53,453 nucleotides of DNA, from sequence record MT446409.1. One strand, written 5' to 3'. Made by a program: the position numbers and the translations under genes. Position 1 is the stretch's first letter. Every line of letters starts with the position of its first letter. Shown piece after piece: positions 13,671 through 43,237 of this stretch. This DNA is from Escherichia virus TH37. Below the pieces are notes generated by a model, which was not told the origin of the DNA, searched no databases, and saw nothing but the letters and a program-made list of their open reading frames with translations.

Positions 13671-16600
13671 TTATCTACGTTCCATTGCACCATTACCCAT
13701 GTTGATTGTTTGGGTAACAGTTTGACCGTTAGGAGTTGACACGGTTGCAGACGCTTGCTTGTTGTTCACAGTAGCTTTGACTTCAACGTTAACTACAGTG
13801 GCCTGGGTCTGACCATAAGACAGTCCATTTCTGGTGAAGCCAGTTGCACCTTCCGCAATAGAATCGCCCTGAGAAGCCCATTCACGGTACTTCTTGACGC
13901 GGTTCTGTGCCTGTAGAGGAACAGCATTGAGCCAGTCGGTTCCGTGTTTGTTGATAGCATCATCAACAGTTCCAGCACCATCCGTATACGCCGCCATAGC
14001 CTTCTCAGCGTCACCATTATAACGCTTGAGCATTGCATCGTAGTAGTCACGACCAACGCGAGCACGCTCTTCCAGAGAGTTATCACGGGCAGGTGTAACG
14101 CCAAATCCTGGGTCACGGGAAGTTGAATCAAGAACTTGCATACGACCTTTAGCACCAGTCGGTGATGTGACTACCGAACCGTCTGCGTTCAAATCGCGGT
14201 TCCCTGACTCTTCTCCTGCGATAAAGTCATAAACATTACGTTCTGCATCGGCTGCACCGTTGGAGGTCATACGCATCACTCTGGCTGCGTCACCGCCTGC
14301 CTCAATAAAGGTGCTGCCGTATGAGATTGCAGCTTGCGGAACAGCGTAACCAGGCAATACCCCAGCACGCTCCGTCTGCGCGATTCCTAGCTGTGCAACG
14401 CCTTCGGCATAGTTTGAGTCGGCCCCACGCTGAACGTTCTCCTGAGCCTCGCCCATGCTGTATTCTGTGCGGTCATAGGCACGAGCCATGCCGTCCAGTC
14501 CAGCCATTTGCATAGCGCCAGCGATACGCGCCTGACTCCAGCCCCGTTCCTGACCACGTTCACGCATTACCCGCGCTAAGGTCACAGGGTCGCCCTGTGC
14601 CTGCCTAATGTCGCCAATGGTGATAAGGCCACGGGTTCCCTGAACAATGTTCACAGCGCCGCTGGGGTCGCCATTTAGGAGGGTGTTATAGGCACTATGT
14701 GTGGTTTGATTCAGTCGGTTGGCTTGCTGGGAATTAAGTCCTAACATCTCCATGCCCTGTGACATAGAAGAGTATTCGTTAGGATTATTTACACCAGCAT
14801 CTAACGAATTGCCATAGAAGTCGTTCAGACCTTCCAGAGCTTCGTTACCAATTTGGGTAGCACCAATAGCCATACCAGCGACACGACCCCACGGAGTCAT
14901 CATCATGGCATTCATAGCGCCATTGGATAAAGAGCCAATACTGCCACCAGCTACGCCAGCAGCTAATGCCCCACCCATGCGACCGAAGTCATCGCCAAAA
15001 CTGCCACCAGCTTGCCACCCACGACGCCCACCACCGCCACCAGAACCACCACCGCTAATGCCATAGCTACTAGCATCAATGTTGTCCCAGAAGCCGCCTG
15101 AGCGCCCACCGTCGCCACCGCCGAAATCTGCATCCTGACCACGGAGCTTGTTTTCTTCCTGTGCTGCGAGGATACCTTTCTTAACTGACACTGCCATCAG
15201 GTCATTGCCAGTTGTGCTATCAGCGCCAACAGCAGAGGCTGTAGCAGCACCAACTCCAGCATCGGTACGGTTGCCTATGAATGGGTCATCAGGTGTGCCA
15301 GCAGCAGGAGAGTAGCCACGATTTGACCTCTGCTTAACATCCTTCCACAGGCCGTCACCAGTCATGGCAGCACGAGCACCCTTGATTAAATCATCATTGG
15401 ACAAGTCTGGATTAGCTTCAACAAACTCTCGACCAGCATTAAGACGACCAATAACAGAATCAATCTTATCTTTGTTGCGGTCGTACCATCCTTCATCCTT
15501 GTCAATCCACTCCGACTTCGTGGTATCGCCGATGGTTTGAGAAAACAATGCGCGCGAACGACCAGATACAAGCATCCCAAATTGAATTTGGTCCATGTAA
15601 TCTTTATGGTCACCCGCAGATAAGTTGGCAAACTTGCCAGCCCTTTGAGGGTTCTTGTGTTCCCAAATCGCGTCATCGCCGATAAGACCATCTGGGGAAT
15701 ACATGAACGACGGATAATTGTCATTTGTAATTGCGCCAGCTTGCTCAATGTCGAATCCAAATTCTTTGGCTACACGGTTACGAGCAATTTCTTCAGTTCG
15801 GTGACCAGCTTCGAACATTCTTTGGGTAAATTCGCTTGGTCCTTTTCCGCGTTGCAGGCCAACTTTATCAACCATTGCAGCCCAAGGTCTGGTATATTCG
15901 TTGTTGCCAAGGAATGAACCAACAGTTGAGCCTGTAATGTCATATTGTTTACGGAAGTCTAACCACTCCTGAGTACCCTGTTCCATATTATGAAACTTGA
16001 TTGGGCCTTGTTGTGGTTCAGGCTGAGGAACAGCGGAATCCAGGTTTGCGATTGCAATGCTCTCACGACGAGAGCGAGCAGAGTTCCAACTCGTTGGTGA
16101 ATCAAGCTGTGCAATAAACTCTGTAGATGGATTTAATTCAACAGGTCCAGTGTTTCTTAGACGTTCAGCAGGGTCGAAAGTCTTACTGATTTCAGCTTCA
16201 TTATATTGGTGAGCATTCTCAAGTACACCACGAATAGATGCACCAGAGTAACGAGGGTCATCACCAATATCTTTCTTTAGGTTGTCATAACCAGAACGAG
16301 CATCTGCAAGGTCTGTATAACGAGATGCAGAATCAAGAATCAAATCTCGGTCAGAAGATTGAGTGCGATATGCGTTCATCCCCCGTTCTGAACCACCAGC
16401 ATATACCTTAGCAGCAGATTTAACTACGCCAGATACATCTTGATATAAAGATTTACTTGCATCAGACCAACCTGGGGAGCCAGATAATGATGCAGATAAA
16501 GAATATTCAGCTTTAATGCCAGAACCCATAGAGCCTAAAGGTAGGCCAGATGCGTTAAGCGGTTGTCGGGGATGTTGAATATCACCAACAATAGATTCAG

Positions 16601-33413: not shown

Positions 33414-33686
33414 TTAATCCACTTGCAACATTGCAAGGCGGAAGTCATATCCAACTAATGCTTCGGACAGCTCTTCAATTGAAGTTGTTGCCGAGATTAA
33501 AGTTTGGAGGTTTTTGAATGTCTCATCGTTAAATGCTTGAGACTGTGGGTCAGACGAAGCGAACACCTCGCCCTTAATCTTTTCAAGGAACGCCATTACG
33601 GCGTCCTTTGCTGGAACTTCGGAATCAGCAGCAAACATATGGTGCTCTAATTCCTGCATATCGAAAATAGAATATACAGTTTGCAT
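33414..33686 (-). CDS. Hypothetical protein
   Basis: 90 aa co-oriented ORF. Confidence 0.3.
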   Translation of the reverse strand: MQTVYSIFDMQELEHHMFAADSEVPAKDAVMAFLEKIKGEVFASSDPQSQAFNDETFKNLQTLISATTSIEELSEALVGYDFRLAMLQVD

Positions 33687-38106: not shown

Positions 38107-38162
38107 TTGCTCTCCGGTTCATATGGTGGGAGATAAATTAGCTCCGCACCATGATAATGGTA

Positions 38163-38384
38163 TTATTTTAATGACGCCTGTAAAGACGCATTTAGTACAG
38201 AACGCTTTTCATATTCGCGCTGGTTGTACGTGTTTGTCAGTGCTTCCGCAGCTTCTATTGACAGAATTGCAAAACCACCAAAGGCGTTGCGAACTTCTTC
38301 AAGATTCAGATGCAGTACTTCACTGGTAATTTGGTTGGCTATTACAGCCTTGAAAATCTCTTCGGCAATTTCAGCAGTTTTCAT
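38163..38384 (-). CDS. Hypothetical protein
   Basis: 73 aa co-oriented ORF. Confidence 0.3.
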   Translation of the reverse strand: MKTAEIAEEIFKAVIANQITSEVLHLNLEEVRNAFGGFAILSIEAAEALTNTYNQREYEKRSVLNASLQASLK

Positions 38385-39170
38385 GTTTCTCTCCAGTTAA
38401 ATTTAAGTAAGTGCCCTGACGTGGACTATTACGAACATTACAATAAATTGGCTTAAATGGTGTTTCCACTGCGGCCAAGACACTTATTAAATTTGATTCG
38501 AACCGCCCAAGTGAATCAACCTTGTTTATGGGGACCATCGGGGAAAAGTATAAACCCGCTTAATGCTCGCATCATGTTTGAACATTAAGAACCCTGACTT
38601 GCATATTTCATGTGAATAGGAACATAGTCTGGATTTTGAATCCAGCTAACTTCGAGAAGAGGAGTAGCTCAAACGAAAGCCTGAACTTTCTTTCGACACA
38701 TCACAATCAGCGCAACTGAGCCGTATCGCTACGGTATGCCAGACGCTAACTTGAGCCTTTTGAACAGAGGCATAACTGTTGGAGGAATTCTGTGGCCTTT
38801 ACGCGGCCAACGTGCCATTAATGCTGGCAAGACAGGGCTACCGTTCCCAAGCTCCCTTATCGCGGTAAATACGGACACTGTTTTAGGAAGTGACCACCTG
38901 AACGTCTCGTGTTCATTACGTTGACTTTACGGAGTCATCGGAGCTTCGTTCTCAAGCACACCGTTTTCTTCTTTGGCCGGTGTCAAGCCGCAAGCCTTTG
39001 TTTCGGTGGACTAACCTTCTCACACTAACGATGTGTAGCGGGACGTTCCAATCCTAGGAGGCAGCAATTTCAATTGTTATGCCCAGAGCAATTGCAGGAA
39101 TTACACCTGCCATGCTACAAGTAGCTAGAGTCTCGTTATTTAAAGTCGCGCACTCCCTCGACTTGTTCAC

Positions 39171-39380
39171 TCACTGTCGGGTAAGTTTCGAACACTTTTG
39201 TGCCCACGTTTCATTGTGGACTAAAATCTGGGTTTTGGTTTCGCGTGACAAAACTTTCACTTCTGCAACATCCAAATAGATCGGTTGTGCAATCAAGCAA
39301 TAATCACTTACGAACCCACTTTGAGAGCAACTCACTATCGACATTGCTATCAGAACTGCTAGACACTTCTTTCTGAACAT
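39171..39380 (-). CDS. Putative o-spanin (Rz1-like outer membrane lipoprotein), overlapping i-spanin in another frame
   Basis: Internal start MFRKKCLAVLIAMSIVSC with lipobox-like IVSC; starts inside and extends past the Rz-like ORF; weak SD. Confidence 0.3.
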   Translation of the reverse strand: MFRKKCLAVLIAMSIVSCSQSGFVSDYCLIAQPIYLDVAEVKVLSRETKTQILVHNETWAQKCSKLTRQ

Positions 39381-39548: not shown

Positions 39549-39689
39549 TTAGATGGCGCACGCACCACTTGAACAGTCGTTATCACCAGCACCAGGAACG
39601 ATTGCTTCTTCGTCCTGCTTCTTCTTCAGTTCTTCAATTGCTTCTTCGGCAGCACCGAAGTCTAAGTTATCAAGTGCATCAAAATCCAT
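39549..39689 (-). CDS. Mini-ORF whose C-terminus matches the class Ia RNR alpha (NrdA) C-terminal redox tail
   Basis: 46 aa MDFDALDNLDFGAAEEAIEELKKKQDEEAIVPGAGDNDCSSGACAI; last 17 residues ~10/17 identical to E. coli NrdA ...LVPSIQDDGCESGACKI as recalled; GGAG SD upstream. Confidence 0.35.
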   Translation of the reverse strand: MDFDALDNLDFGAAEEAIEELKKKQDEEAIVPGAGDNDCSSGACAI

Positions 39690-39719: not shown

Positions 39720-39815
39720 TGGTGGACAAGGTTGGATTCGAACCAACGACACATCTGTCGAACAGATTGCTCTACCTGACTAAGCTCTGGAGCAGACCTT
39801 CTGAGCTACTCGTCC
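39720..39815 (-). tRNA. tRNA-like element (anticodon-like loop UCG), atypical: ~21-nt extra segment between acceptor stem and D-arm
   Basis: Minus-sense GGACGAG-TA-...-GCTTAGTCAGGTAGAGC-...GTTGG-TTCGAAT-CCAAC-CTTGTCC-A-CCA: 7-bp acceptor stem, canonical T-arm, encoded CCA, but 96 nt long. Confidence 0.4.
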
Positions 39816-40991: not shown

Positions 40992-41068
40992 TTGTATATA
41001 CCTTATATTAAATAGTTTTGCACGCCACGGTGACGTGACTTAGATAAAATTAAAGAGCCTTTCTCTTT

Positions 41069-41084
41069 TCACATCCAATTAATG
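41069..41084 (-). promoter_or_regulatory. Conserved phage promoter-like motif, copy 2
   Basis: Plus TCACATCCAATTAATG. Confidence 0.5.
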
Positions 41085-41114
41085 TGTCAGGACTGCTCTG
41101 ATTTAACAAACAAC

Positions 41115-42688: not shown

Positions 42689-43237
42689 CGTAGCCCAACC
42701 GTTTGTGTCAATTCTGGATAACTGCATTGGCGAAGGGTTACTCCCGTTAGGGTGCGACCTGCGTATCATAACTGCGCCGCAGCCTGGCAAGCTACGGAGG
42801 TCACAGAGGCTTTGTAACCCTTCCCAATACATTCACCCAAATCCCAGCGTTGGCATAGCTGGTGGCTTGGTTTTGTGCGGATTATGCCACTCTAAGCCCT
42901 GTTTGTCCGACTTCCTCGGAGCACCAGCAGCTTGTGGCACAAACCTATTTTCGAATGACAAGCATACAGATGAGTCTGCCGCATCACGGCTCCTGCTGTT
43001 CTATTGGCCCCAAAAGCCTCAGTATCTTGTACCAATTCATCCCAATACATACACAACTATATACAATAGCGAACTATCTGCGAATAAGTATTCTGGCCCT
43101 ATGGCCTAAGTTAAAGTTAATAGTGTGTGATGGAAACATTCCATCGAAAATAACTTTGTAGAATGAGTCGAACATTCTCGCACGATGCGGCCGCAACGGT
43201 CTACCGAGTTACAAAGTTATTATCTGATGTTGTTTCT

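Follow-up and report, generated by a model that had tools for sequence, protein, structure and literature searches.

MALAT1 mascRNA is a transfer RNA (tRNA)-like processing module, and phage RNAs that are processed by RNase P include C4 of P1 and P7 and M3 of phi80. Phage T4 species 1 and 2 (rnaC and rnaD) are stable tRNA-like RNAs of unknown function that are not decoders; they are encoded in a tRNA gene cluster and are longer than the element described here. In plant mitochondria, t-elements are tRNA-shaped modules within a longer transcript, in which the acceptor and T-arm are intact and the anticodon region is degenerate (PMC1920247). Here, we analyzed a 96-nucleotide (nt) tRNA-like element on the minus strand of Escherichia virus TH37 (39720..39815 of sequence record MT446409.1; the whole stretch of 53,453 nt is called the window). 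This element has the layout of the t-element and mascRNA type, namely a tRNA-shaped module with intact acceptor and T-arm and an unconserved anticodon region, which would lie in a longer transcript. However, neither t-elements nor mascRNA have a sequence relationship to it; the resemblance is one of possible working and not of membership, and cleavage of the present element is a prediction. Like rnaC and rnaD of T4, the element is phage-encoded and tRNA-related, and its own relatives were found within one genus only.

The window region is 92-99% identical to phages of the genus Carltongylesvirus (Chaseviridae), including phiEcoM-GJ1 (hereafter GJ1), Mangalitsa and ST32. The existence of the element is already known, and its annotation is inconsistent. 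In the RefSeq record of GJ1 (NC_010106), the orthologous 95 nt (phiEcoMGJ1_gt01) are annotated as "tRNA-Arg, may contain an intron". A 95-bp tRNA-Arg was described in ST32 (PMC6266442) and a 92-bp tRNA-Arg in SKA49 (PMC10282059), and the records of Ecp_YSF and Pel53 carry 71-nt tRNAscan-SE calls that start inside the insertion. A "tRNA for arginine or leucine" was also reported, and PYps3T, 4T and 16T were said to "lack exactly" this tRNA (PMC8762354). The authors of the Mangalitsa genome obtained 0 tRNAs with ARAGORN (PMC6753284), and the Mangalitsa sequence at this locus is 98.9% identical to the window. The loci annotated as tRNA-Arg (in GJ1, ST32, SKA49, Ecp_YSF, Pel53 and Tiny) are orthologous, with the same sequence in the tRNA part; element-bearing Carltongylesvirus records share 86.6-98.9% identity over 181 nt including the flanks. 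These records treat the gene as ordinary or intron-bearing, whereas we found a truncated anticodon arm with an unconstrained loop, and the window allele, in contrast to its annotated relatives, receives no call at all from default tools. No structural analysis of the element was found in the literature searched. The record of Pel53 (PP952070.1) names a Staphylococcus phage with the host Staphylococcus hyicus; it is a Carltongylesvirus with 93% identity, and its host assignment looks doubtful.

We found that the tRNA body of this element is under purifying selection, whereas its "anticodon" and its insertion are not. Our preferred reading, which we hold tentatively, is that a tRNA-derived gene has been kept as a tRNA-shaped, non-decoding RNA whose function is its own excision by RNase P and 3' processing, that is, the punctuation of a transcript. 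Beyond the annotation, the locus is a selectively maintained gene without an anticodon, with an expanded D-loop and with natural alleles of presence, absence and replacement. It has been listed as an ordinary tRNA-Arg or tRNA-Arg/Leu in dozens of genome papers and used for arguments on codon supplementation, and in other papers the same sequence is said to contain no tRNA. The tRNA-Arg annotation is probably misleading, because the body is under selection and the "anticodon" is not, which makes the gene a candidate for a tRNA-like RNA that does not decode.

Anatomy of the element and its insertion

Read on the minus strand from G1 (39815) to the A of CCA (39720), the first half of the element is GGACGAG TA GCTC AG AAGGTCTGCTCCAGAGCTTAG TCAGGTA GAGC A and the second half is ATCTG TTCGA CAGAT GTGTC GTTGG TTCGAAT CCAAC CTTGTCC A CCA. 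The 5' strand of the acceptor stem, GGACGAG (39809..39815), is invariant in the 14 distinct alleles and pairs with 39724-39730 in a 7-bp stem with one G-U pair; across alleles, pair 5:68 is G-U or G-C. The 3' strand CTTGTCC is followed by the discriminator A and an encoded CCA (39720..39730), although the CCA is kept in only part of the alleles. Next to the stem, TAGCTCAG (39801..39808) forms positions 8-15 and consists of U8, A9, GCTC (a first copy of the 5' strand of the D-stem), A14 and G15; it is invariant and matches the same positions of canonical phage tRNAs. Then comes the 21-nt insertion AAGGTCTGCTCCAGAGCTTAG (39780..39800), which is not present in canonical tRNAs, and after it the 3' part of the D-loop, TCAGGTA, with the 3' strand of the D-stem, GAGC (39769..39779), which supply G18, G19, U20 and A21. 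This region, GGTAGAGC, is invariant except that TCA is missing in SA91KD. The shortened "anticodon" arm ATCTG-TTCGA-CAGAT (39753..39767) is a closed hairpin of 15 nt instead of the usual 17 with a hypervariable loop. The 5-nt variable loop GTGTC (39748..39752) is of class-I type and invariant, and the canonical T-arm GTTGG-TTCGAAT-CCAAC (39731..39747) has position 60 (T/C) as the only varying position of its loop. The acceptor stem, T-arm, encoded CCA and GCTT/GAGC helix resembling a D-arm had all been noticed in an earlier note on this DNA, and its description of an atypical tRNA-like element with an insertion is borne out: the element has a tRNA ancestry, and relatives carry it under the annotation tRNA-Arg.

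Without the insertion, the element is 74-81% identical over nearly its full length to canonical class-I phage tRNAs (Phe, Asn, Arg and Lys), such as cyanophage P-TIM40 tRNA-Arg, phage JS10 tRNA-Asn and Bacillus phage Izhevsk tRNA-Phe. They have in common a D-arm of the form TAGCTCAG...GGTAGAGCA, a 5-nt variable loop and the T-loop GGTTCGAATCC. In a multiple alignment with P-TIM40 tRNA-Arg and JS10 tRNA-Asn there were only two differences: the element has 20-23 extra nt right after G15, and its anticodon arm is 2 nt shorter. In addition, the element differs from canonical tRNAs in that it has no conserved anticodon.

The insertion is bordered by a direct repeat, GCTCAG...GCTTAG, whose second copy is GCTYAG across alleles. 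Because of this repeat, the sequence alone cannot tell placement "after G15" from placement "between positions 9 and 10". The earlier note had put about 21 extra nt between position 9 and the D-stem; the size agrees with our result, but the D-loop, after G15, is the better place for the insertion. This placement is favored because TAGCTCAG, which is invariant, directly adjoins the acceptor stem. It is also favored by the allele of SA91KD, in which TAGTCA has been lost from the second copy and the first copy still serves as D-stem in the fold. Depending on the allele, the insertion is 21, 20 or 15 nt long, and it occurs as two haplotypes, AAGGTCTGCTCCAGAGCTTAG and AAGGTTTGCATTGTGCTCAG, which differ at about 8 of 21 positions. 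The small hairpin TCTG-CTC-CAGA that had been seen in the window is there, but only the first haplotype forms it, and it is imperfect (AAG.GUCUG-CUC-CAGA.G.CUU). When acceptor stem, hairpin and T-arm were enforced, the window allele folded within 1 kcal/mol of its minimum free energy (MFE) structure, as a cloverleaf with the insertion as an imperfect hairpin inside the D-loop. In the GJ1 haplotype the insert hairpin was not formed and the second repeat copy was preferred.

With default settings, ARAGORN found 0 tRNA genes and no transfer-messenger RNA (tmRNA) in the window, and at the gathering scores the window had no match of any kind to Rfam, including tRNA and tmRNA; a tmRNA, with a tRNA-like domain and a tag frame, was thus found by neither search. 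With permissive thresholds, the Rfam tRNA model (RF00005) gave a local match of 27.9 bits (E = 6.6e-4; gathering score 29) that spans model positions 9-63 only. The earlier note had named the lack of any tRNA model above threshold as part of the evidence against the element; formally, default tools give this result, but homology and conservation show that the element is real. After removal of 21 nt in silico, ARAGORN called a 75-nt tRNA-Arg(tcg), whichever repeat copy was retained, and the MFE structure of the insert-free sequence was a cloverleaf whose anticodon arm was shut to 6 bp and a triloop. The element has the acceptor stem and the 5-bp T-stem with a 7-nt GTTCRANYC loop of a canonical class-I tRNA. 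Its D-arm departs from this class, in which 3-4 bp carry a loop of about 7-11 nt, since the loop here is about 30 nt; nevertheless, the D-loop consensus residues A14, G18G19 and A21 are present despite the 20-21 extra nt. It also departs from the class in lacking an anticodon arm of 5 bp and 7 nt (17 nt), a score above curated or default thresholds, and an anticodon that is conserved among orthologues.

Every one of the 22 pairs in the four helices of the cloverleaf is a standard pair in each of the 14 distinct alleles. No compensatory changes were found in these helices among the 14 alleles; the stems hardly vary, and therefore the cloverleaf has no covariation support. A search for more distant homologues (IMG/VR and metagenomes) returned the same genus only, besides two unrelated metagenome contigs with tRNA arrays. 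On these contigs (L028 626-690, minus strand; L029 459-524, plus strand), tRNA-like sequences have the first 15 nt GGACGAGTAGCTCAG and the T-arm as in the element. Their 3' acceptor strands (CTTACAC and CTTCAAC) do not pair with GGACGAG; both sequences are preceded by GTTATCGCCCACCAAC, and neither received an ARAGORN call. A host or bacterial origin of the element was rejected, as there was no match in 5,426 E. coli genomes and the gapped pattern had no match in 185,579 genomes of bacterial species.

The nature of the insertion bears on two further identities in the record, a tRNA with an intron, as in the note of NC_010106, and a class-II tRNA-Leu(CAG). The latter is what ARAGORN calls on the alleles of GJ1 and L031, and this call on the GJ1 allele accounts for the wording "arginine or leucine" in the literature (PMC8762354). 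Nevertheless, we consider both identities very improbable. The insertion is 20-21 nt long and sits in the D-loop, and the body can be aligned with class-I tRNAs over its whole length. In the Leu model, the D-stem consists of one Watson-Crick pair and one G-U pair, and 5 nt (GTGTC) precede the T-stem, where a class-II tRNA-Leu has a paired D-stem and a long variable arm 1-2 nt from the T-stem; on other alleles, ARAGORN gave Ser, Thr or "???". Thus, we rejected tRNA-Leu(CAG) as an artefact. The introns known from bacterial tRNA genes are self-splicing, belong to group I, interrupt the anticodon loop and measure a few hundred nt, and E. coli is not known to have a splicing endonuclease. A group I intron was also rejected: the insertion has neither the size nor the position of one, its two dissimilar haplotypes have no common structure, and there was no match to an Rfam intron family.

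Conservation of the body and variation of the anticodon loop

The comparative set was the locus from 25 genomes or contigs with the element, plus alleles without it. As a benchmark we used the adjacent open reading frame (ORF) of 46 amino acids (aa), whose third codon positions were taken as neutral and whose first and second positions were taken as constrained. In the 64-nt tRNA body only 3 sites were segregating (positions 60, 68 and 73), with a nucleotide diversity (pi) of 0.017. This is the level of the first and second codon positions of the ORF (4 of 92 segregating, pi 0.014), whereas 23 of the 46 third positions were segregating (pi 0.152). The difference between body and third positions was significant (Fisher test, p = 3e-8). 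Meanwhile, 4 of the 5 sites of the "anticodon" loop were segregating (pi 0.184), and the loop differed from the body (p = 2e-4) but was indistinguishable from synonymous sites (loop against third positions, p = 0.35). The diversity of the loop is not above that of synonymous sites, and no diversifying selection need be assumed. Protein coding was also rejected as the cause of the conservation, since insert lengths of 21, 20 and 15 nt would shift the frame and the three codon phases are equally invariant. The spacers on either side of the element are hypervariable.

The loop alleles of the 25 genomes were TTCGA (19), TAAGA (3), TTAGG (2) and TCGAA (1), and in each of them the first and last bases can pair (U-A or U-G). 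The three genomes with TAAGA have three different flanking backgrounds. In TH29 (L021), the hairpin ATCTGTTCGACAGAT, the homologue of 39753-39767, has been swapped for its exact reverse complement ATCTGTCGAACAGAT; its TCGAA allele is a small inversion of the loop between inverted repeats. A conserved UCG anticodon is contradicted by these four alleles, whose diversity is like that of synonymous sites. In addition, we noted that the stem of the hairpin contains ATCTGTT, which could be read as a class II pause or termination signal of the T7 type. This reading was rejected, as the window has 9 copies of the 7-mer where 11 would be expected and two of the loop alleles break it.

The arm itself was paired differently by each method: the cmscan alignment gave 5 bp and a 5-nt loop, the MFE structure 6 bp and a 3-nt loop, and the ARAGORN fit 4 bp and an A.G mismatch, without position 26. 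The earlier note had described an anticodon-like UCG loop on a 4-bp stem. Such a loop is possible only if G32 and C38 are unpaired; as it stands, the arm is 15 nt with 5-6 bp. We read the gene as a non-decoder because the anticodon loop, which should be the most conserved part of a decoder, is its least conserved part, and because the arm is 2 nt short and self-closing. In addition, the discriminator is A or G, and positions 74-76 are CCA, CCC or CT in relatives, which argues against a strict requirement for aminoacylation.

The alternative is a functional, structurally tolerant tRNA-Arg(UCG) that supplements the decoding of CGA and CGG, with the D-loop expansion looping out at the elbow, the arm opening to 4 bp and a 7-nt GUUCGAC loop, and the variant loops being loss-of-function alleles of a dispensable gene. 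It agrees with the tRNAscan-SE-based annotations in GJ1, ST32, SKA49, Ecp_YSF, Pel53 and Tiny, with the ARAGORN call once the insertion is removed, with the retention of TTCGA in 19 of 25 genomes, with the purifying selection on the body and with the use of CGA (14% of the Arg codons in the window; 6.8 per 1000 codons). Nevertheless, we regard it as unlikely. In the arm, which is 2 nt short, a G32-C38 pair would shut the loop, as in the MFE structure with its triloop, and the D-loop would be about 30 nt. The E. coli arginyl-tRNA synthetase identity set is A20 (the major element), C35 and G or U36. Here the D-loop reads ...GGTA-GAGC and position 20 is U, whereas the closest canonical phage tRNA-Arg (P-TIM40) has GGATA there. 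For C35 and G/U36 the picture is mixed: the TTCGA allele would have both, provided that its loop opened to 7 nt, and TTAGG and TAAGA have lost C35. Furthermore, three other loops, which would be UAG, AAG and CGA as anticodons, stand on fully intact bodies, TAAGA is found with three different flanking backgrounds, and the diversity of the loop is at the synonymous-site level. Finally, a 5-bp stem with a 7-nt loop is the consistent form of this arm in canonical tRNAs (PMC7609411).

The same data bear on the view that the element is an inert relic, a decaying tRNA pseudogene without function in a young, recombining genus. There are two disabling lesions (the insertion and the short arm), and the element is lost, replaced or partly deleted in some isolates, as in SA91KD without TAGTCA; in most genomes it receives no call from standard tools, as in the report of 0 tRNAs for Mangalitsa (PMC6753284). 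However, this view is quite improbable, because constraint on the body equals that on non-synonymous sites: only 3 of its 64 sites are segregating, against 23 of 46 synonymous sites a few nt away, the spacers on both sides are hypervariable, and the variation is confined to the loop, the insertion and the 3' end.

The cassette, its predicted transcript and its possible function

The element behaves as a discrete cassette at one exact junction. In PYps3T it is missing, and the breakpoints lie within a few nt of the element ends. In BSBP01 (L026 ~540-600) and 2KOFFS (L035 1-65), the slot holds, with the same breakpoints, a long hairpin followed by a T-run. In its predicted fold, this stable hairpin (-23.7 kcal/mol, z = -4.7) resembles a terminator or an RNase III site. 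In TH23 (L025 647-716), a second, unrelated cloverleaf follows directly after the first, and it is identical in TH28 and TH33 and limited to these three among the loci compared. Its T-loop is TTCGACT and its "anticodon" arm has 6 bp and a tetraloop; ARAGORN called it "tRNA-???" with a 2-nt anticodon (ac).

All genes of the phage are on one strand. A promoter consensus was derived from 9 promoters annotated in GJ1 and then searched in the window. The nearest upstream motif of the phage RNA polymerase, ACACATTAATTGGATGTGAA (41068..41087, minus strand), lies 1.27 kb upstream of the element and, from its sequence, is the likely source of the transcript that would carry it; after 41087-41068, the next such motif is at 33463. 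No sigma70-like promoter or terminator adjoining the element was found in the window search. The element has no promoter of its own and the phage motif is distant, and therefore it would lie inside a polycistronic message.

In the mechanism that we propose, the element would be transcribed within a long polycistronic transcript of the phage RNA polymerase. The intact minihelix of acceptor stem and T-arm, together with the elbow of D- and T-loops, would make it a substrate for the tRNA-processing enzymes of the host. RNase P would cut at G1, and RNase E or exonucleases and the CCA-adding enzyme would then act at the A/U-rich 3' trailer. Excision would break the message at a point shortly before the 46-aa ORF and the spanin genes and would free a tRNA-like RNA of about 93 nt. 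With a hairpin in place of the anticodon arm, no anticodon would be presented and the loop could drift freely. An effect in cis (transcript punctuation and end formation) would be the most likely function, and it would resemble that of plant mitochondrial t-elements or the mascRNA module. Punctuation fits the locus because another end-forming structure takes the slot in two phages and a second anticodon-less cloverleaf adjoins in three. If excision does depend on RNase P, a virulent coliphage would offer a small system, amenable to genetics, for tRNA punctuation or mimicry, and the natural allele swaps of the locus (empty, hairpin and doubled) could be used as controls.

Several points weigh against this reading. 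The literature searched held no evidence on expression, cleavage or aminoacylation of the element, and the cloverleaf rests on canonical features and homology, without covariation. For RNase P the acceptor/T-arm and the elbow are enough, so that processing in cis alone leaves the two invariant strands of the hairpin and the invariant variable loop unexplained. When opened to 7 nt, the majority loop allele has U33, UCG and A37, and the CGA use of the phage, 6.8 per 1000 codons, is about twice the E. coli level. Furthermore, the element is dispensable in some isolates, and the hairpin allele could be a terminator moron with no relation to the element.

The invariance beyond the needs of RNase P speaks for a trans-acting tRNA mimic. 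According to this idea, the excised, anticodon-less RNA binds or titrates a factor that recognizes tRNA, as a decoy or a regulator; candidate targets are a tRNA-directed nuclease or toxin of host defense, a modification or processing enzyme, and EF-Tu. The whole L-shape is invariant in sequence, including the D-arm, the closed hairpin stem and the variable loop, and a second anticodon-less cloverleaf adjoins in TH23, TH28 and TH33. In addition, it is known that tRNAs of phages can counteract defenses that target tRNA (PMC10264068, PMC12673091). However, the known countermeasures are decoding tRNAs with intact anticodon loops, no tRNA-related phage enzyme is annotated in GJ1, and some viable isolates lack the element or have another structure in its place, so that we give the mimic only a small chance of being right. 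A broader proposal is that the genus keeps a dedicated, selectively maintained, anticodon-less tRNA mimic, with two in tandem in some strains. It would be either the first "t-element" of a bacterial virus, by which host RNase P punctuates a transcript of the phage polymerase, or a free decoy for a host factor that recognizes tRNA, and the 20-nt D-loop expansion and the closed hairpin would be functional design rather than damage; we consider this possible but doubtful.

Neighboring sequence

The acidic 46-aa ORF MDFDALDNLDFGAAEEAIEELKKKQDEEAIVPGAGDNDCSSGACAI (39549..39689, minus strand) starts about 30 nt downstream of the element, and its GGAG ribosome site lies 20-30 nt after the element, beginning at about 23 nt; the spanin genes also lie downstream. 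The ORF is under strong purifying selection and was found in this genus only, with at least 93.5% identity in all 45 matching records; it is not annotated in GJ1.

The earlier note had also pointed to a second site resembling a T-loop near 38500. The 10-mer GATTCGAACC does exist at 38495-38504, but none of the tests made marked it as a remnant of a tRNA: a flanking T-stem, an Rfam match and a tRNA signal were all absent, and we take its occurrence as chance. Around it, at about 38160-39300 of the window (minus strand), there are short ORFs only, and the counterpart in GJ1 (14961-16028, about 1.1 kb) has no annotated gene.

Finally, a second structured element was seen at 43140-43222 (minus strand), about 15 nt downstream of a phage promoter motif at 43256-43237. 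Its layout is AATAACTTTGTA-[32 nt]-GAATG-TTCGACT-CATTC-TACAAAGTTATT, in which a long closing stem abuts a hairpin resembling a T-arm. It had no Rfam match, and its MFE z-score was not significant. The GJ1 homologue has three double compensatory changes in the closing stem and this hairpin, and in two contigs (L030 and L006) a different hairpin takes the slot of the element.

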